Shown in pieces: positions 5,764 through 19,586 of a DNA stretch of 26,363 nt; the stretch's first letter is position 1, and each line of letters starts with the position of its first letter. The DNA is taken from assembly GCA_016184305.1 (NCBI GenBank), contig JACPCX010000187.1, positions 1 to 26,363 of the forward strand. Direction: 5' to 3'. Both the position numbers and the translations under genes were made by a program. A model generated the notes under the pieces. That model ran no database searches, was not told the DNA's origin, and worked only from the letters and a program-made list of their open reading frames with translations. Source of the stretch: Candidatus Rokuibacteriota bacterium (lineage in GTDB: Bacteria > Methylomirabilota > Methylomirabilia > Rokubacteriales > CSP1-6).

Positions 5764-6054
5764 TCACTCCGGGGGCGGGAGCCGGTGGCGGGAGGCCAGC
5801 CCCTCGAAGGACGCCTCGATCTCGCCCGCGATCTCGGCGGCGACGGCATCGGGGCTGCCGGCTCGCTCGGCCTCCTCCCCTCGACTCCACCCCTCCAGGT
5901 AGGCGTCTGACGCCGAGGCGCCCGTGCGCATGGCCACGGCGTCGATGAGATCCTGGAAGCGCGGCGACAGCGGCCGACGCACCGTCCGGTCCCCGTCGGA
6001 GGCCTCGACGACCGACGGAATGCCCTGCCAGCGAACGATGCGGTAGCGCGCCAT
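5764..6054 (-). CDS. Small 'Virulence_fact' (PF13769-like) domain protein
   Basis: 96 aa from ATG 6054: W.GIPS.V...DG......LS.RFQ..ID..AM..G...SDAYLE.W, the recognisable pattern of this family (from recall, not a search). Confidence 0.75.
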   Translation of the reverse strand: MARYRIVRWQGIPSVVEASDGDRTVRRPLSPRFQDLIDAVAMRTGASASDAYLEGWSRGEEAERAGSPDAVAAEIAGEIEASFEGLASRHRLPPPE

Positions 6055-6099: not shown

Positions 6100-6128
6100 T
6101 TGACAAAGGTTCACCCCCCGCTTAGCCT
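6100..6128 (+). promoter_or_regulatory. Sigma70-type promoter of the DUF169-methyltransferase gene (leaderless)
   Basis: TTGACA (6100-6105) - 17 nt - TAGCCT (6123-6128) - 6 nt - ATG 6135; no Shine-Dalgarno sequence. Confidence 0.75.
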
Positions 6129-6134
6129 CCACCC

Positions 6135-7979
6135 ATGATCGATACCAAGACGGCGGAGCGGGAGCTCACGACCTATCTCCGGCCGCAGACCTTCCCCGTG
6201 GCCATCCGCATGCTCAAGCCCGGCGAGCCCATCCCCGAGCGCGCCAAGCGGCCCGCGCGCGACTTCAAGAAGCTCAGCATGGCGTGCCAGGTGATCGACA
6301 TGGCGCGCCGCTACGGCTGGATGATCGCGCTCACCCGCGAGGACCATATCTGCTCCCTCGGCATCACCGCCATCGGTTTCGACAGGCCCCTGCCGATCTA
6401 CAACGTGGGCACGCTCTGTGAGGGCATGTACACGGAGACGAAGGAGGCGGGACAGCGCTCGGAGGCAGCCATCGACAAGTTCGCCCCCGGCGAGTACGCG
6501 ACCCTCCTCGTCGCGCCGCTCGACCGCGCGGCATTCGAGCCCCACCTCGTGTGCGTCTATGGCAACCCGGCCCAGGTGATGCGCCTCACCCAGGCGGCGC
6601 TCTGGAAGCGGGGCGGGCGCCTGGCGTCATCCTTCGAGGGGCGCGCCGTGTGCGCCGACATCATCGTCACCACCATGCAAACCGGCGAGCCGCAGGTCAT
6701 CCTCCCCTGCTCCGGCGACCGCATCTTCGGCCAGACCCAGGACCACGAGATGGCGTTCACCATCCCGTGGCCGCGCATGGAGGAGATCATCGAGGGGCTC
6801 CGCGGGACCCACGCCGGTGGCATCCGCTACCCCATCACCCAGTTCATGGAGTACGAGGCGAAGATGCCGCCGCGCTACATGGAGGTGAACCGCCTCTGGG
6901 ACGCGGAGAAGGGCAAGGCCCCGCTCACCAACCGCGACCGCGTGGTGGCGGCCTACAAGCGCTCCTTCGCCGACCGGGTGCCGGTATACCCCATCGTCGC
7001 CTCCTTCGCCGGCACCCTGGACGGGCTCTCCATCGAGGAGTACTGCACGAACCCCGCCCGGGCCATCAAGGCGATGATGAACTACTACGAGCGCTACCAG
7101 CCGGACGTGGTGCTCGCCTACAACGACCTGGCGAAGGAGGCCGAGGCCTTCGGCTGCACGGTGAAGTACTCCGACTACGTGGTGCCCTCCATCGAGACGC
7201 ATATCCTCGAGGACAAGGCCGACCTGGCCCGGCTCACGATGCCGGACCCGTACCGGACAGCCAGGCTGCCCGGCTTCCTCGATCAGTGCGCGGCGCTCGT
7301 CAAGGCCGCCCCGCCGGCGGCCATGGGCGCGGTGGCGGTGGGCCCATGGACGATCGCCATGTTGCTCCGCAATCCCGAGACGATGCTGCTCGACACCTTC
7401 GAGGATCCCGCATTCATCCACGCGCTCATGCGGATCACCACGGACTTCTGCAAGGCCTGGGGCGAGGCCATCGTCACGACGAAGATCGGCCTGTCCTTCT
7501 CCGAGCCGACCGCGTCCAACAGCCTCATCTCGCCGGACAACTACCGCGAGTTCATCGCGCCCTATCACAAGGAGCTGGTGGACCACTTCAAGGCGAGGAA
7601 GGTGGGTCTCACGACCCACATCTGCGGGACCACCTACCCCATCTTCGAGGACCTGATCGCCTGCGGCTTCACCACGGTCTCCTTCGATCTGGACCAGCAG
7701 TCCGATCCGGCGCTCCACGTGGACCAGCTGAGCCGGTTCATGGAGGTCGCGCACGGGCGCGCCGTGGCCATCGGCAACGTGGACGCCACCCGGTTCGAGA
7801 CGGCCACCCGGGAGGAGATGGAGGCCGAGGTGCGGCGCTGCATCGACGCCGCGGCCAGGCAGTCCGGGTTCATCCTCTCCACGTCGTGCGAGATCCCGCC
7901 CCGCTCCGACCCGGAGATCGTGCGCTGGTTCATGGACACGGCCCACGACTACGGCCGCTACGACCGCCTCCTCGGGTAG
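6135..7979 (+). CDS. Fusion protein: N-terminal DUF169 (COG2043) domain plus C-terminal uroporphyrinogen-decarboxylase/MtaA-CmuA-family corrinoid methyltransferase domain
   Basis: Residues about 1-260: PVAI, ACQ...MARRYG, C.LG, GNPAQ.MRL, C.D, PCSGDR.FG...DHE (DUF169 pattern). Residues about 265-614: DRVPVYP, EAEAFG, GPWTIA, SEPTAS...ISP..Y.EF..PY, HICG (Zn-binding HxC), GNVD, FILSTSCEIP (third Zn ligand Cys). Confidence 0.85.
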   Translation: MIDTKTAERELTTYLRPQTFPVAIRMLKPGEPIPERAKRPARDFKKLSMACQVIDMARRYGWMIALTREDHICSLGITAIGFDRPLPIYNVGTLCEGMYTETKEAGQRSEAAIDKFAPGEYATLLVAPLDRAAFEPHLVCVYGNPAQVMRLTQAALWKRGGRLASSFEGRAVCADIIVTTMQTGEPQVILPCSGDRIFGQTQDHEMAFTIPWPRMEEIIEGLRGTHAGGIRYPITQFMEYEAKMPPRYMEVNRLWDAEKGKAPLTNRDRVVAAYKRSFADRVPVYPIVASFAGTLDGLSIEEYCTNPARAIKAMMNYYERYQPDVVLAYNDLAKEAEAFGCTVKYSDYVVPSIETHILEDKADLARLTMPDPYRTARLPGFLDQCAALVKAAPPAAMGAVAVGPWTIAMLLRNPETMLLDTFEDPAFIHALMRITTDFCKAWGEAIVTTKIGLSFSEPTASNSLISPDNYREFIAPYHKELVDHFKARKVGLTTHICGTTYPIFEDLIACGFTTVSFDLDQQSDPALHVDQLSRFMEVAHGRAVAIGNVDATRFETATREEMEAEVRRCIDAAARQSGFILSTSCEIPPRSDPEIVRWFMDTAHDYGRYDRLLG

Positions 7980-8128: not shown

Positions 8129-8332
8129 ATGGCCATCCAGAAGGTGACTGTGCACATCGATCGGGATCTGCTCCGCCGCGCCCGGGAGCGAACCGGCAAA
8201 GGGGTGAGCGTCACGATCCGCCAAGGCCTCGAGATCGTCGCCGCCAGCGAGGCCTACGATCGCCTGCGAGCCCTTCGCGGCAAGGTCAAGCTCTCCCTCG
8301 ATCTCGCCCGCCTCCGGGACGACCGCCGCTGA
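8129..8332 (+). CDS. vapB: Type II antitoxin, ribbon-helix-helix (VapB-like)
   Basis: 67 aa; KVTVHIDRDLL..A beta-strand/helix pattern typical of RHH antitoxins; directly upstream of and overlapping a PIN-domain gene. Confidence 0.8.
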   Translation: MAIQKVTVHIDRDLLRRARERTGKGVSVTIRQGLEIVAASEAYDRLRALRGKVKLSLDLARLRDDRR

Positions 8333-8721
8333 TCGCGCTCGATAGCAGCGCGCTTGTCTCGTACCTGGCGGGCGACGCCGGTGCGGACGTGGAGGCCACG
8401 GCGCTCGTTCTCGACCACAGGCAAGCCGTGCTTCCGCCGGTGGTGCTCTCGGAGCTGCTCAGCGACCCTGGACTGCCCGCTGCCGTCAGAGAGTCGCTAC
8501 TTCTCCTCCCGCGGCTGGAGGTGCTGGACGGCTACTGGGAGCGTGCCGGGCTCCTGCGGGCCCGCGTCCTCGCTCGGGGGCAGCGGGCGAGACTGGCCGA
8601 TACCTTGATCGCCCAGTCCTGCATCGACCACGACGTTGAGCTCGTGACCCGCGACGCGGACTTCCGGCACTTCGCGCGCGCCGGCGGGCTGCGCCTGTTC
8701 GGGGCACGGAGGATTCGATGA
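8329..8721 (+). CDS. vapC: PIN-domain ribonuclease toxin (VapC-like)
   Basis: IALDSS, LSELL, LADTLIA and LVTRDADF supply all four acidic PIN residues. The only coupled start is CTG 8329, overlapping the antitoxin TGA. Confidence 0.88.
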   Translation: MIALDSSALVSYLAGDAGADVEATALVLDHRQAVLPPVVLSELLSDPGLPAAVRESLLLLPRLEVLDGYWERAGLLRARVLARGQRARLADTLIAQSCIDHDVELVTRDADFRHFARAGGLRLFGARRIR

Positions 8722-12557: not shown

Positions 12558-12671
12558 CTAGCGGAGGGCCTCGAGGACTTCCGCGACGACCTCGAACCGC
12601 AAGATGGCGCCCATGGCGCCGTCGCCCAGGAGGGGGCGCTCGGCCAGACGCGCGACGAAGGGGGCGGCCAT
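12558..12671 (-). pseudogene. yitJ: Scar of a bifunctional homocysteine S-methyltransferase/methylenetetrahydrofolate reductase gene (YitJ-type)
   Basis: MAAPFVARLAERPLLGDGAMGAIL|RFEVVAEVLEALR* (37 aa): an HMT N-terminus with DGAMG fused to a segment resembling the YitJ C-terminal helix. The HMT part is solid; the YitJ assignment rests on 13 residues. Confidence 0.65.
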
Positions 12672-13210: not shown

Positions 13211-14254
13211 TCACTTCCGCTCCCAGGCCGTCCCCTCGCCCCGCCGCATGGGCTCCACCCACAGCTGCCGCACCACCTCCCACACGCCCGCCAGGAGCGG
13301 AATGGCGACGAGGGCGCCCACGAGGCCCGCGAGCTGGACGCCCGCCAGGATCCCGAGCAGCACGGCCACCGGATGAAGCCCGGTGGCGCGGCCGATGAAC
13401 TGCGGAATGAGGAACTTGCCCTCGAGGAGATTCGCCCCCCAGAACAGGAGGGCCGTCCAGAGCGCCAGCGTGGGCGAGATGTTGACGGCGGAGAGCAGGC
13501 CGAGCACCGCCGCCGCCGGCGAGCCGAGGAACGGGACGATGTTCAGCGCCGCGGCGACGCCGCCGATCAGCAGCCAGTACGGTACGCCGAGGAGGCCGAG
13601 TCCCGCGGCGATCACCGCCCCGACGCACAGGCTCACGACGAGCTGGCCGCGGACGTATCCGCCCATGACGGCCAGCACCGGCCCGGCCAGGGCCGCCGCG
13701 CGCTCCCGGTGCGCGGGGGGCAGCAACGCTGCCAGCGCGCGACCGATGTGCTCGGCGTCGATCACGAGGTAGGCCGCCAACACGATGACGAGGAAGAAGC
13801 CCACGACGGCGCCGATGACCCCGGCCGTCGCGCGCAGGGTGTTCTCGATCAGGATCTTGCCGATGCCCGCCAGCCCGTCACCGCCCGCCGGAACTGCCGG
13901 CAGCGGGATCTCCCAGCGCGCCCCCCAGGCGATCACCTGCGCGGCCCAGCCCTTCGCGTTCTCGACGAGCGCCGGGAGCTGGCCGGCAAACTGCGTCCCC
14001 TGCTCGACGAACGCGGGGATGAGGAAGCGCCCGAGCACGGCGACCACGAGCGCGGCGCCCAGGTAGACGCCGGCCATAGTGGCGATGCGGGGGACGTGGC
14101 GGCGGTCCCCCCAGCGCGCCGCCGGCAGGATGGCCGCCGCCAGGATCAGCGCGGTGAGGAGCAGCATCCAGAGCTGCCACGTCTGCGCGAACACCCACAC
14201 CGCCGCGGCAGCGACAAGCAGCCGCCCGATGGTCGCCCAGGGCAGGACGCTCAC
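13211..14254 (-). CDS. AI-2E (PerM/TqsA/UPF0118) family transporter
   Basis: GYVRGQL, NIVPFLG, LEG.FLIP...G...GLHP and G.VGALVAIP motifs. GTG 14254 overlaps the upstream TGA. Confidence 0.92.
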   Translation of the reverse strand: MSVLPWATIGRLLVAAAAVWVFAQTWQLWMLLLTALILAAAILPAARWGDRRHVPRIATMAGVYLGAALVVAVLGRFLIPAFVEQGTQFAGQLPALVENAKGWAAQVIAWGARWEIPLPAVPAGGDGLAGIGKILIENTLRATAGVIGAVVGFFLVIVLAAYLVIDAEHIGRALAALLPPAHRERAAALAGPVLAVMGGYVRGQLVVSLCVGAVIAAGLGLLGVPYWLLIGGVAAALNIVPFLGSPAAAVLGLLSAVNISPTLALWTALLFWGANLLEGKFLIPQFIGRATGLHPVAVLLGILAGVQLAGLVGALVAIPLLAGVWEVVRQLWVEPMRRGEGTAWERK

Positions 14255-14985
14255 CGATGCACGGTCCGGTCGGCGGGCGCGCGGCGGAAGGCGCAATCGG
14301 CCATCCAGCAGCGGCGGCACTGGGTGAAGTAGTGGTCCACGCGGGCCTCCGGCCCGATGCCGACGAGGAAGGAGATGGTCTTGACCGGCATCATGAAGCA
14401 CGCCGCGTTGAGCGCGACCCCGATGGACGTTCCCGGGCAGAGGCGGAACAGCTCCCGCTGCTGGGCCGTGTCCCAGCCCGCGTAGCCCGGGCTGATGCGG
14501 TTGGTCACCCGGATCCCCTCGGCGATGGCATCCTGGCACAGGAGGTCGTTGACGTGCTCGGCCAGGCTCTCGACGGCGGCCGAACCCACGCTGTCGAGCA
14601 TCACCGCCAGCGGGAGATCGTGGGCGTCGAAGAGCGCTCGCACCTGGTCCTCGAGAGGCTGGCCCACGGTGCAGACGCCGGCGCCGACACTCGTGAGCGC
14701 ACCCCAGAGCCGGCCGACATGCGGGATGCGCAGCTGCTCGCCGGCGGCCTCGATGTGGCCGGCCTCCTGGCCCGAGACCGGGACGGCGCGGTACACGCAG
14801 CGCGGCTCCATGAGCCGCTCGCCGAGGGCGAGAGCCTCGTCGAAGAGGGCCATGACATCATCCGTGGGGACATCAATCCCCTTCTTGTAGCCCTGGAGGC
14901 GCAGGACCTCGTCGGGATCGACGCGAACGGGCAGCCCCTCGATGACGAGGGGCTCGGGGGACCGGACGGTGAGGACCTCGCTCAC
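14251..14985 (-). CDS. Stand-alone B12-dependent methionine synthase reactivation (AdoMet-binding)-like domain protein
   Basis: CTVG..LE, LDSVGSAAVESLAE, RISPGYAGW...QQ..LF, IGV.L...CFMMPVKTIS and a C-terminal CxxCxxxxC. GTG 14985 overlaps the upstream TGA. Confidence 0.85.
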   Translation of the reverse strand: MSEVLTVRSPEPLVIEGLPVRVDPDEVLRLQGYKKGIDVPTDDVMALFDEALALGERLMEPRCVYRAVPVSGQEAGHIEAAGEQLRIPHVGRLWGALTSVGAGVCTVGQPLEDQVRALFDAHDLPLAVMLDSVGSAAVESLAEHVNDLLCQDAIAEGIRVTNRISPGYAGWDTAQQRELFRLCPGTSIGVALNAACFMMPVKTISFLVGIGPEARVDHYFTQCRRCWMADCAFRRAPADRTVHR

Positions 14986-15905
14986 CGCTGACGGCGGGAG
15001 CGGACGACCTCGGCGATGAGGCGGACATGCTCGGCGCCGGAGCCGCAGCAGCCGCCGACGATGCTGCAGCCGGCGTCGAGCAGCGCGGGGTACTCCTTCG
15101 CCATGGCCTCGGGCCCGAGTTCGTATGTGGTCCGATCCCCGGAGGTGATGGGCAGGCCCGCGTTGGGGTACGCGACGAGCGGCACGGAGGTGGCGGCGCG
15201 CATCTCGCGGATGATGGAGATGGCCCGGTCGGGGCCGCGTCCGCAGTTCATCCCCACGATGTCGGCCCCCGCGGCCACGAGGTTGCGCGCGACGTCTGCC
15301 GGGCTCTGGCCCCACATGGTCCGGTCGCGGTCGTGCAGCTCCTCGTACTGGAAGAACATGGTGGCCATGACCGGCCGGTCGGTGGCCGCCTTGCAGGCCC
15401 GGATCGCCGCCACGGCCTCCTGGGGGAACATCATCGTCTCGACGGCGAAGATGTCCACGCCGCCCTCGGCCAGCGCCTCAGCCTGCTCCCTGAACGTCGC
15501 GACGTACTCCTCGTCGGTGGTGTCGCCAAGGGGCTCGTACTCGGCGGGCAGCCGGCTCGTGGGCCCGATGGAGCCCGCCACGTACCCGCCGGGCGGGCAC
15601 ACGGAGCGGGCCAGCCAGGCTCCCTTCTCGTTGAGCTCGCGGTTGCGGTTGCCGATCCCGTACTCGTTGAGCTTGAGCCGGGTGGCGCCGAAGGTGTTCG
15701 TCTCGACGAGGTCGGAGCCAGCCGCGAAGTACCCCGCGTGGATGCCGCGCACCACGTCACCGTGGGTGTCGTTCCACAGCTCGGGGCAGGCGCCGTTCGC
15801 GAGCCCGGCCTCGAAGAGGGCCGTGCCGTAGCCGCCGTCGAAGACGAGGAGCTCGCCAGCCTGCACCCGCTCGACGATCTCCCAGCCGCGGGCTCGGCCG
15901 GCCAT
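14982..15905 (-). CDS. Homocysteine S-methyltransferase domain protein (stand-alone MetH N-terminal module)
   Basis: FDGGYGT, AGSDLVETNTFGA, VAGSIGP, ETM, GMNCG, YPNAGLP and GGCCG, with the three Zn-binding Cys. Confidence 0.92.
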   Translation of the reverse strand: MAGRARGWEIVERVQAGELLVFDGGYGTALFEAGLANGACPELWNDTHGDVVRGIHAGYFAAGSDLVETNTFGATRLKLNEYGIGNRNRELNEKGAWLARSVCPPGGYVAGSIGPTSRLPAEYEPLGDTTDEEYVATFREQAEALAEGGVDIFAVETMMFPQEAVAAIRACKAATDRPVMATMFFQYEELHDRDRTMWGQSPADVARNLVAAGADIVGMNCGRGPDRAISIIREMRAATSVPLVAYPNAGLPITSGDRTTYELGPEAMAKEYPALLDAGCSIVGGCCGSGAEHVRLIAEVVRSRRQR

Positions 15906-16585
15906 CACGCCGCGGCCACCGGGACGCCCATCAGCGCCTTCGCCCGCACGACCGCCAGCGTGGAGTCCTTGGCGTAGCCGTCGGCGCCGATCTCATCGCA
16001 GTACGCCTGCGTGACGGGCGCGCCGCCGATCATGACCTTGACGCGCTCGCGCAGCCCCGCTTTCTGGAGCGCGTCGATGGTGCGCTTCATGCCCGGCATG
16101 GTCGTGGTCATCAGGGCCGAGATGCCGACGATCTGCGCGCCGTGCTCCTCAACCGCCGCGACGAACTTCTCTGGCGCCACGTCGCGCCCGAGATTGTGCA
16201 CCTTGAAGCCGGCGCCCTCGAGCATCATCCCGACCAGGTTCTTGCCGATGTCGTGGAGGTCGCCCTGGGCGGTGCCGATGACGACCACACCGAGCGACTG
16301 GCCGGCCGCCCCGGCGGCGGTGAGGAGCGGCTTGAGCAGGTCGAGCCCGGCGTACATGGCCCGAGCCGACAGGAGCACCTGCGGCACGTAGTACTCGTTC
16401 CGCCTGAACTTCTCGCCCACGACATCCATGCCGGGGATGAGCCCCCGGAAGATCAGGTCGATGGGGCGGAGCGAGAGCGCCAGCCCCTCTGTGGTCATCC
16501 TGAACACCGCGTCCTTGTCGCCCAGGATGAGGGCCCTCGACATGGCGGGGAAATCGAAGCCATCGAAGCTCGGCGATGTGCTCAT
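15905..16585 (-). CDS. Stand-alone corrinoid (cobalamin-binding) protein, cap plus Rossmann domains (MetH/MtaC/MttC-like)
   Basis: GLIPGMDVVG..F...EYYVPQVL cap, GDLHDIGKNLV (DxHxxG), SALMTTT and MIGGAP. Confidence 0.95.
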   Translation of the reverse strand: MSTSPSFDGFDFPAMSRALILGDKDAVFRMTTEGLALSLRPIDLIFRGLIPGMDVVGEKFRRNEYYVPQVLLSARAMYAGLDLLKPLLTAAGAAGQSLGVVVIGTAQGDLHDIGKNLVGMMLEGAGFKVHNLGRDVAPEKFVAAVEEHGAQIVGISALMTTTMPGMKRTIDALQKAGLRERVKVMIGGAPVTQAYCDEIGADGYAKDSTLAVVRAKALMGVPVAAA

Positions 16586-18578: not shown

Positions 18579-19586
18579 CTATGAGTGGCGCGGGGGCTCC
18601 CCGTCCAGCAGCCGGGAGAGCGGCTCCCTGAACGGGAAGAGGCTGAAGATTCCGCCCGTGTGGACGAAGCACAACCGCTGGCCCAGCGCCCTGGGGTCCT
18701 TGCGGAGCGTGTCCAGGAGCCCGGCGAAGGCCTTGGCGGTGTACACGGGGTCGAGCACCACGCCTTCATCGCGGGCGAGCCGGACGATGACGCGAAGCTC
18801 CTCGTCGCCTACCGCGGCGCGCCCCATGCCCTGATAGCCGTCGAGCAGGTGGATCGTCTTCGGGACCTCGATGGCCAGACCGAAGCGGGTGATAGCCTTG
18901 ACCATCGTCCGGGCGATGTAGTCGCGGACCCGGTCGGCCGGGAACGCGATGGGGACTCCCACCACGTCCGAGGGCAGGCCCGCGAGCTGCTTGCCCATGA
19001 GCAGCCCGGCCTGGCTGCCGCCGCTGAACGCCGTGATGACCACCGAGTCGAAGCGCGGCGCGCCCTGGCCGATCTGCCCGGCCAGCTCCACGGCGCACTC
19101 GAGGTAGCCGAGCGCGCCCACCTCGTTGGAGCCGCTCTCCGGGATGACGTAAGGCCGGCCGCCGCGCTGCCGCACCTCCTCCGCGAGCCCATCCAGCGCC
19201 TCGTCGACCCGCTCGAACTCGGCATCGGACAGGTAGCGGATGTCGGCGCCGAGCAGCCGGTCCAGGAGGAGGTTGCCGTCGTAGGTCGCGGGCTTCCCAC
19301 CCTTGACGGCGAGCACGGCGCGCATTCCGAGCCGCGCCGCCACCGCCGAGACCGCGCGACAGCAGTTCGACTGCAGCGTGCCGCAGCTGATGAGGGTGTC
19401 GGCGCCCTCGGCCGCGGCCTCGCCCACGAGGAACTCCAGCTTGCGGACCTTGTTCCCCGATTCGAGCAGGCCGGTCAGGTCATCCCGCTTGAGGTACAGC
19501 TCGACGCCGAGCTGGCGGGAGAGGCGGTCGAGCTTGAGGATCGGCGTCGGACAGAGCGCGAGCGGATAACGCGGCGGCATTGCCAT
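18579..19586 (-). CDS. D-cysteine desulfhydrase/ACC deaminase-family PLP enzyme
   Basis: LKRDDLTG...SGNKVRKLEF (PLP Lys), QSNC, GNLLL, LDPVYTAKA and HTGG. Start ATG 19586. Confidence 0.9.
   Translation of the reverse strand: MAMPPRYPLALCPTPILKLDRLSRQLGVELYLKRDDLTGLLESGNKVRKLEFLVGEAAAEGADTLISCGTLQSNCCRAVSAVAARLGMRAVLAVKGGKPATYDGNLLLDRLLGADIRYLSDAEFERVDEALDGLAEEVRQRGGRPYVIPESGSNEVGALGYLECAVELAGQIGQGAPRFDSVVITAFSGGSQAGLLMGKQLAGLPSDVVGVPIAFPADRVRDYIARTMVKAITRFGLAIEVPKTIHLLDGYQGMGRAAVGDEELRVIVRLARDEGVVLDPVYTAKAFAGLLDTLRKDPRALGQRLCFVHTGGIFSLFPFREPLSRLLDGEPPRHS

Follow-up and report, generated by a model that had tools for sequence, protein, structure and literature searches.

Two kinds of described system come closest to the gene reported here: corrinoid methyltransferases with the uroporphyrinogen decarboxylase (UroD) fold, and split methionine synthases. 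Within the UroD superfamily, a His-Cys-Cys ligand set marks enzymes that act on sulfur or selenium, O-demethylases carrying carboxylates instead (Kountz and Balskus, PMC10418091), and CdmB is described without zinc (PMC13222342). MtpA of Methanosarcina acetivorans is a methylmercaptopropionate:cob(I)alamin methyltransferase (10.1101/548461), and recycling of methyl-selenium or methyl-sulfur compounds into methionine has been proposed for the type 1 mlp clusters (PMC10418091). In the split methionine synthase MtgBCDE, an outside methyl donor is loaded by a separate methyltransferase (PMC12478193). Here we describe a gene at positions 6135 to 7979 of contig JACPCX010000187.1 (assembly GCA_016184305.1, genome G000, Candidatus Rokuibacteriota), which fuses the domain DUF169 to an MtaA-like methyltransferase. 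The whole stretch analysed, 26,363 nt in length, is called the window. Rokubacteria are an uncultured bacterial group known from soil and groundwater genomes. DUF169 had been called uncharacterised in an earlier note on this DNA, and the literature searched agrees, giving passing mentions and no function. Neither a description of the fusion nor a function for DUF169 was found in that literature, subscription journals and supplements being outside its reach.

An old two-domain fusion conserved across Rokubacteriales

The gene and its parts are as follows.
6135..7979, + strand: fusion gene of DUF169 and an MtaA-like UroD-superfamily methyltransferase, 614 aa (translation, Pfam, homologues, AlphaFold2)
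6165..6797, + strand: DUF169 domain, residues 11-221 (Pfam, alignments, domain model)
6927..7952, + strand: MtaA-like barrel, residues 265-606 (Pfam, sequence and structure matches)
7617-7619, 7623-7625 and 7887-7889, + strand: codons of the predicted zinc ligands H495, C497 and C585 (alignment)
6285-6287, 6351-6353, 6651-6653 and 6708-6710, + strand: codons of the DUF169 cysteines C51, C73, C173 and C192, the last variable (alignment)

The single uninterrupted reading frame of 614 residues read from the letters alone was borne out, since translation of 6135-7979 on the forward strand contained zero internal stops. All motifs quoted for it were also found: ACQ (C51), HICSLG (C73), VCAD (C173) and LPCSGDR (C192) in the N-terminal half, HICG (H495, C497) and STSCEIP (C585) in the C-terminal half. 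Pfam placed both halves well above cut-off, DUF169 (PF02596) with 196.5 bits against 27 over model positions 2-209, and URO-D (PF01208) with 213.7 bits against 23.9 over residues 265-606. In an AlphaFold2 model of the full-length protein, the mean predicted local distance difference test score (pLDDT) was 94.5 and the predicted template modelling score (pTM) 0.68.

We examined the distribution of the fusion in 251 genomes of the phylum, 183 of them Rokubacteriales. Some match was present in 219 of the 251. Counts of full-length copies by genome refer to the 150 matches listed, with 367 further matches beyond these. At least 132 of the 183 Rokubacteriales genomes had a full-length, stop-free fusion at 76-99% identity, and 9 more had a partial one. 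Among the matches listed, the fusion also occurred in 8 genomes of families f7 and f10 (64-66% identity) and in one f12 genome (55%), so that full-length copies extend from Rokubacteriales to three other Methylomirabilota families. Families f6, f8, f11 and f13 had no full-length fusion among the matches listed, and f13 gave no match in any of its 20 genomes. In a protein search, all 120 listed of 686 matches carried both Pfam domains and covered nearly the whole query; with the most distant fusion as query, all 120 listed of 610 were likewise two-domain. The earlier note had allowed that the fusion might exist only in this assembly. It does not, and a lost stop codon or an assembly artefact is ruled out by the full-length copies in at least 132 genomes and by the two-domain matches.

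The length of the inter-domain junction was constant in 31 of 31 aligned fusions, and the fused methyltransferase halves of the four families formed one clade (SH-aLRT support 99) in a quick tree that was built without bootstrap and contains no characterised MtaA, CmuA or Mlp sequence. We conclude that the fusion is real, old and near-core in Rokubacteriales. Being near-core and 76-99% identical throughout a large uncultured order, it probably serves a central function.

The few organism-named matches to the most distant fusion were Rokubacteria or Methylomirabilota, except one labelled Calidithermus, and the records of related loci carry these same two names. Searches that were not exhaustive for this purpose gave no clear fusion outside the phylum, and the plasmid searches showed no fusion either, with 5 distant UroD-family records and a single DUF169 record. 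Eight records (L015, L024, L029, L036, L037, L039, L059 and L062) bear titles of other taxa (Nitrosocosmicus, Eisenbacteria, Nitrosotalea, Limnocylindria, Acidoferrum, Deferrimicrobiaceae, Binatia and Alicyclobacillus), yet show 83-89% identity and a Rokubacteria-type gene order, and are probably mislabelled. Database labels for the protein vary between MtaA/CmuA-family, HemE-family and DUF169. In one genome (G020, L105:9696-11535) the fusion is split by a frameshift near residue 298, perhaps through a sequencing error; the corrinoid orthologue described below is also missing there.

The C-terminal half resembles MtaA, not HemE

Sequence, structure and invariant ligands agree that the C-terminal half is MtaA-like with a His-Cys-Cys set, as had been read from its motifs. 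The best PDB sequence match was MtaA (4AY7, E 1.5e-55), compared with 1.2e-31 for the best HemE. The same chain was the top structural match (Z 40.4, root-mean-square deviation 2.1 over 329 residues, 23% identity; HemE, Z 37.9). The HxC...C motif aligned residue for residue with 4AY7, giving the His-x-Cys...Cys arrangement of ligands, and none of 31 fusions or 23 stand-alone relatives departed from H495, C497 and C585. Scores for named families fell short: NCBIfam TIGR01463 (MtaA/CmuA) gave 121.5 against a cut-off of 235.4, and the equivalogs for MtaA and MtbA gave 96.8 against 400 and 90.5 against 600. From sequence and models, we consider the C-terminal half probably a zinc-dependent corrinoid S/Se-methyltransferase that acts with the corrinoid protein of the window.

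The distinction from HemE also stands. The half scored 45 bits against 302.95 for TIGR01464, has 87 of 319 identities to the Rokubacteriales HemE, lacks the RQAGR and NLGHG motifs of that protein and is distant from HemE in the tree. The other 9 of 9 Rokubacteriales examined have a hemE of their own above cut-off, separate from the fusion. None above cut-off was found in G000 or in six fusion carriers of families f7, f10 and f12; an AhbD-like match just under cut-off was seen in G043.

Two further sets of UroD-like genes were noted. G000 carries a stand-alone paralogue of the methyltransferase half (L084:1474-2559, contig C121; 64% identity) that keeps the ligands and has no DUF169, and in the quick tree it nests inside the fusion clade. 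A third, distant UroD-like family is represented by L119:10470-11480, L123:9418-10413 and L085:1006-2223; in G000 its His-x-Cys is replaced by His-x-His, and in G183 and G204 its genes are directly downstream of RamA.

A corrinoid protein and a homocysteine methyltransferase encoded in the same window

The earlier note saw no coenzyme M pathway genes and left the thiol partner open. It had overlooked probable partners in the window itself, a trio of genes at 14251-16585:
15905..16585, - strand: corrinoid protein with B12-binding cap and Rossmann domains, the likely partner of the methyltransferase (PF02607, PF02310)
14982..15905, - strand: stand-alone homocysteine S-methyltransferase (HMT) domain (PF02574, 235.8 bits)
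14251..14985, - strand: stand-alone MetH-type reactivation domain (PF02965, 26 bits against a cut-off of 25)

The trio lies 6-9 kb from the fusion, the corrinoid gene about 8 kb away. All 8 corrinoid copies examined carry DxHxxG, and the Cys...Cys-Cys motif of HMT was intact in each of 22 related sequences. Orthologues of the reactivation domain occurred in 164 of 251 genomes of the phylum and in 143 of 158 of the family of G000, and a RamA/RACo activase in 10 of 10 Rokubacteriales examined (in G000 on contig C215). Since the trio includes an HMT, homocysteine is likely the final methyl acceptor, reached through a separate enzyme. As for coenzyme M, comA was found in 2 of 5 genomes and not in G000, whose assembly is 88.8% complete; other coenzyme M routes were not searched for.

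The phylum-wide profile of the corrinoid orthologue closely matches that of the fusion. It was present in 145 of 158 genomes of family f1, 19 of 21 of f2, 3 of 3 of f3-f5, 6 of 21 of f7, 5 of 6 of f10 and the single genomes of f9 and f12, and absent from f6 (0/2), f8 (0/15), f11 (0/2) and f13 (0/20), 39 genomes together. G006 and G020 have the methyltransferase half without the corrinoid orthologue. In genus g61 of f7 (20 genomes, G004 being dropped because a contig end cuts it), 4 have both, 2 the methyltransferase half only, 1 the corrinoid gene only and 13 neither (Fisher p 0.014, the genomes being kin and not independent).

Linkage points the same way. The two genes shared a contig in 66 of the 116 genomes with both listed, at a median of 13.8 kb and within 25 kb in 63 of the 66. 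Much of this linkage in Rokubacteriales is shared synteny, and the cases in which the other neighbours differ are more telling: f10 (L086 and L088, 3-4 kb), f7 (G012, L092, adjacent) and the metagenome locus L131. A predicted complex of the C-terminal half with the corrinoid protein scored 0.79, compared with 0.00 for the best of three controls. Solved complexes reach the mark used in 116 of 157 cases, mismatched pairs in 2 of 215; the runs agreed on at least 47% of contacts, with a partner pLDDT of at least 77.

DUF169 probably has a task of its own

Three cysteines, not four, are characteristic of the DUF169 half. Of 47 stand-alone DUF169 proteins, 46 keep C51, 45 C73 and 46 C173, and so the first three motifs noticed earlier are family-wide; C192 of LPCSGDR, counted with them, was present in only 21. 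Q147, R196 and G81 are also nearly invariant. In a model of the domain alone (pLDDT 96.6, pTM 0.90), each of the three conserved cysteines lies at or next to a predicted helix start, an arrangement that would fit a metal or Fe-S site. We slightly favour the presence of such a site in DUF169.

Structure comparison gave no clear relative. Foldseek with the domain model returned 0 matches at E <= 0.001, a PDB sequence search with the DUF169 alignment (A2) returned a chance match (E 0.52), and the best VIA match (Z 4.7, thiolase/ketosynthase-like chains) was within background. A profile comparison with one thiolase (probability 0.8%) did not bear out the weak likeness to thiolases. The lack of a clear match shows neither a new nor a different fold. 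Feature matches in the ESM Atlas were to GGGtGRT (0.90) and to AA_synth and HDC (both 0.87), which are leads only, and a search for long DUF169 proteins with P0148 gave 0 of 707 candidates, known fusions being missed as well, so that it is uninformative.

The fusion itself had been put forward as a Rosetta-stone clue to DUF169 function. That part of the claim which concerns the gene held, as the fusion is real and old, and in distant fusions the DUF169 half is even better conserved (68-72%) than the methyltransferase half (59-62%). As a clue it has been weakened, because close DUF169 orthologues (50-70% identity) stand alone and a paralogue of the methyltransferase half stands alone in G000. 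In G010 and G018, a DUF169 protein of 69-70% identity ends in a stop codon, with neither a methyltransferase half nor a corrinoid orthologue in the genome. In G027, G037 and G047, stand-alone DUF169 proteins of 57-59% identity occur without a methyltransferase half or corrinoid orthologue, and G027 and G037 also lack RamA. Bacteroides thetaiotaomicron and Methanosarcina acetivorans each have a stand-alone DUF169 gene as well. Most close relatives having no methyltransferase, the fusion by itself does not disclose the function of DUF169, and we regard it as a weak clue. The suggestion that DUF169 reduces the corrinoid lost ground too: with a RamA/RACo activase and a reactivation-domain gene so regularly present, a dedicated reducing role is unlikely. 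DUF169 orthologues without methyltransferase or corrinoid protein, together with these dedicated activators, make it likely that the job of DUF169 is independent of B12.

Neighbours of stand-alone DUF169 genes were examined in 80 loci. They included an Mrp/ApbC Fe-S carrier in 8, 2-oxoacid dehydrogenase E1/E2 in 4, MetE-like pairs in 4, and 2-oxoacid:ferredoxin oxidoreductase, QueG, PduO and CoA transferases in 3 each. At L128, L137, L141, L145, L153 and L174, DUF169 is directly behind Mrp/ApbC and is often followed by 2-oxoacid:ferredoxin oxidoreductase or Fur; at L145, IscA- and NifU-like genes were also recognised by eye, and a MetE-like pair lies upstream. These loci are a lead for an Fe-S link. 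At L151, L152, L159 and L178, a stand-alone DUF169 gene is directly 5′ of a 2-oxoacid dehydrogenase E1a/E1b/E2 operon. In P0159, DUF169 sits between two MaoC-like dehydratase domains (flanks below the Pfam cut-off). G000 has a second, distant DUF169 gene (L082:1372-2184, contig C208; 25% identity) with Asp for Cys51, and an amidohydrolase and other small enzymes downstream.

A candidate methyl-loading module for a split methionine synthase

The window has the separate corrinoid and homocysteine modules of a split methionine synthase (14982-16585) and no separate pterin module. In agreement, no free pterin-binding methyltransferase was found in 16 fusion carriers, 8 of which also lack a MetH pterin domain; above cut-off were a single folP-like match per genome, with its folP identity checked by gene context in G000 alone, and MetH-embedded domains. 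MtrH was absent from 5 of 5 genomes examined, and a free pterin methyltransferase is encoded near HMT in f6, a family that lacks the fusion. The missing folate module beside an intact HMT leaves the trio without a donor module and makes the methyltransferase half a candidate loader.

In the mechanism we propose, a methylated sulfur or selenium compound would react with Co(I) of the corrinoid protein at the His-Cys-Cys site, giving methyl-Co(III) and a zinc-bound thiolate. HMT would then methylate homocysteine from the corrinoid protein to give methionine, and this second step would pull the endergonic first one. RamA and the reactivation domain would restore oxidised cofactor. DUF169 would bind a metal or Fe-S cluster through its three cysteines and catalyse a separate, B12-free reaction. 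That the methyltransferase half runs on the donor side, salvaging methyl groups into methionine, we put at even chances. Taken as a whole (a donor-side zinc methyltransferase for S/Se-methyl groups that loads the corrinoid protein of the trio, next to a metal- or Fe-S-binding DUF169 with its own B12-independent reaction), the proposal falls a little short of even odds.

Extensions of the proposal are less secure. DUF169 might make the methylated substrate or remove the freed thiol or selenol, the fusion coupling two steps of one route, which we think rather unlikely. More speculative still is a core, folate-free methionine route of Rokubacteriales, in which the fused enzyme generates or captures a methylated S/Se compound through the DUF169 metal or Fe-S site and passes its methyl group through B12 to homocysteine. 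If that were true, DUF169, whose fold is not yet solved, would gain a first function, and soil would hold an unrecognised sink for compounds of the methanethiol, dimethylsulfide or methylselenide type. Should the loading proposal hold, the methyltransferase half would be a donor module of a new kind, serving a split B12 methionine synthase without a folate part, and would tie Rokubacteria to methylated sulfur or selenium cycling. The fusion also offers, in soluble and well-modelled form, a DUF169 domain that has three cysteines to target and lacks a clear counterpart among solved structures.

A number of observations weigh against the proposal. Methylation of cob(I)alamin from a methyl sulfide is endergonic by about +20 kJ/mol (10.1101/548461). 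With the methyltransferase half below every NCBIfam cut-off, its substrate cannot be read off from any named family. The docking result may reflect likeness to solved methyltransferase-corrinoid complexes, and it does not amount to specificity for this corrinoid copy, the controls having included no other corrinoid protein. A pTM of 0.68 for the full-length model compared with 0.90 for DUF169 alone leaves a fixed contact between the domains unsupported; the N-termini of stand-alone UroD rows were misplaced in alignment A1, which may affect the inter-domain region of this model. The fusion and the trio are not co-transcribed, being on opposite strands with other genes between them. They are 40-53 kb apart in f2 and on different contigs in G022 and G048, and unrelated neighbours are conserved as well (an RRM protein in 68 and acs in 42 of 80 loci). 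G005 and G039 lack the fusion but do carry the corrinoid orthologue. Among 80 metagenome DUF169 loci, 2 were fusions, 1 was an overlapping gene pair (L194) and 77 had no match to the methyltransferase half, 55 of these with at least 1.5 kb of downstream DNA by hand count; the loci were ranked by likeness to a stand-alone relative, with a query made from stand-alone proteins, and hence show existence, not frequency. Other donor-side candidates exist in G000, namely the C121 paralogue and an MttB operon with its own corrinoid protein on C224, and the distant UroD-like gene beside RamA is a further one. Of 16 fusion carriers, 8 also have MetH, and MetE-like genes were seen in 17 of 26 genomes, so that the route proposed would be one of salvage and not the sole source of methionine.

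Alternative explanations

The main rival places the methyltransferase on the acceptor side, as an MtaA-like MT2 enzyme that moves a methyl group from the corrinoid to a thiol, sulfide, selenide or metalloid so that the acceptor is detoxified or excreted, the methyl group being supplied by methionine, S-adenosylmethionine or other MT1 enzymes. MtaA, the closest solved relative, is an MT2, this is the thermodynamically easy direction (10.1101/548461), MttB- and MtmB-type MT1 genes occur in some of the genomes, and ClMlp2 methylates selenide in vitro (PMC10418091). The trio, however, already has an intact HMT as acceptor module and lacks a donor module, and comA, seen in 2 of 5 genomes, was not detected in G000. 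The presence of selD in 26 of 26 genomes of the phylum would suit selenide as acceptor, but genomes without the fusion have it too, so that it does not discriminate. We judge this rival unlikely, if not by far. A replacement of the MetH folate domain by an unrecognised methyl-tetrahydrofolate:corrinoid methyltransferase, fed by a neighbouring HMT-MTHFR protein, appears very improbable. No free pterin module was found in the carriers examined, an HMT-MTHFR gene occurs in the region in 38 of 81 clustered loci, and such a possibility was raised for Mlps (PMC10418091), whereas a zinc site of the His-Cys-Cys type suggests a ligand with sulfur or selenium and the G000 assembly keeps the fusion without an HMT-MTHFR gene. 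A HemE identity for the half has practically no chance: the fold is shared and G000 and the six f7, f10 and f12 carriers lack a hemE above cut-off, but the score of 45 bits against about 303, the missing motifs, the far tree position and the separate hemE elsewhere rule it out.

Two rivals concern DUF169. It could be an accessory dedicated to the methyltransferase, there to bind or activate substrate or to reduce the corrinoid, as the earlier note had it. The single old clade of four families, the equal or higher conservation of the DUF169 half and the split, overlapping pair at L194 would fit, but that pair is the only one among 78 non-fusion metagenome loci, reduction is already taken care of by RamA and the reactivation domain, DUF169 occurs in another fusion with MaoC-like domains, and a paralogue inside the fusion clade does without it. 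Orthologues of 57-70% identity in genomes that lack the methyltransferase half or corrinoid orthologue, two of them also without RamA, make this idea improbable. The fusion could instead be a passenger, two adjoining housekeeping genes of unrelated pathways joined once in an ancestor of the phylum. Its single origin, the separate occurrence of each half, the varied neighbours of stand-alone DUF169 genes and the uncertain orientation of the domains in the model are compatible with this. Against it stand the intact gene at 76-99% identity in at least 132 Rokubacteriales genomes, the constant junction and the independent-looking adjacent pair at L194, and we give it a slim chance.

Upstream region and neighbouring genes

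Further features of the window lie directly upstream of the fusion.
6100..6128, + strand: candidate promoter of the fusion's own, TTGACA, 17 nt, TAGCCT (sequence)
5764..6054, - strand: small divergent gene, Pfam PF13769, often adjacent to the fusion (Pfam)

The candidate promoter ends 6 nt 5′ of the start codon, and in G000 the fusion transcript is possibly leaderless. Of 79 related loci, 65 had a similar -10-like hexamer upstream and 30 a -35/-10 pair, counts made with no shuffle control. A consensus promoter/terminator scanner found no site, and Rfam found no riboswitch in the window or in six loci. In RNA runs, the fusion gene's word share was at most 0.12 in 10 of 13. Genes in the loci were called by a codon-score script, and genes in low-GC loci were missed. 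The PF13769 neighbour was present in 33 of 80 related loci; an occurrence of PF13769 proteins in Roseobacter split-MetH clusters was not confirmed, with 0 occurrences in the available parts of 10.1101/192971 and PMC12478193.

At 8129-8721 (+ strand), a small open reading frame and a PIN-domain frame probably represent a toxin-antitoxin insertion, which is missing from 80 related loci. In close relatives, a YitJ-like HMT-MTHFR gene (~614 aa) lies between the amidohydrolase gene and aroK (L001 11373-13108); it is cleanly missing at 12600-12604 of the window and was not found elsewhere in the G000 assembly. A pyridoxal phosphate enzyme of the D-cysteine desulfhydrase family is encoded at 18579-19580 (- strand; TIGR01275 above cut-off, CuyA and XcbE below), and also at L101; this sulfur-metabolism gene is a few kb beyond the corrinoid trio. 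Elsewhere in G000, L109:6864-9836 on C224 is one operon of an MttB-family methyltransferase, a second corrinoid protein and a DUF4213/DUF364 gene. L111:4771-12538 of G047 is an mlp-like cluster with RamA, a corrinoid protein, two UroD-family genes, HMT, DUF1638 and a convergent MtaB. The best selD match has an in-frame TGA in 25 of 26 genomes, which points to phylum-wide selenocysteine use.

Comparison with known systems

The fusion shares the UroD-fold barrel and the aligned HxC...C motif with MtaA and MtbA (4AY7; TIGR01463). It differs from them in its scores below cut-off and its attached DUF169, and its host is a non-methanogen without a consistent comA, in which the likely partners belong to a split methionine synthase. 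MtpA sets a precedent for the donor side, since it demethylates a thioether onto a corrinoid protein. It feeds methanogenesis, however, the available part of its description mentions no DUF169, and the likeness drawn here is one of role (10.1101/548461).

As a member of DUF169 (COG2043, PF02596), the fusion is full-length with the three family cysteines, and differs in being fused. Type 1 mlp clusters likewise have MtaA-like His-Cys-Cys proteins in non-methanogens, with no folate methyltransferase in the cluster, but they bring at least Mlp2 and Mlp3 together with corrinoid and RamA genes, in obligate anaerobes (PMC10418091). Here the window has one UroD-family gene, a single fused gene apart from the trio, and RamA is elsewhere, on C215; it is the layout that sets the fusion apart from these clusters.

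The split methionine synthases of Phaeobacter and Ruegeria (MtgBCDE; 10.1101/192971, PMC12478193) also have separate corrinoid and homocysteine modules and RamA. They use the pterin module MtgD and the MttB-type MtgB, and are without the MetH reactivation domain, whereas the system described here has that domain, no pterin module and a UroD-fold enzyme as candidate loader. Together, these comparisons suggest that the fusion is a UroD-fold corrinoid methyltransferase tied to a split methionine synthase; both kinds are known, and a variant fused to DUF169 and free of folate would be new.

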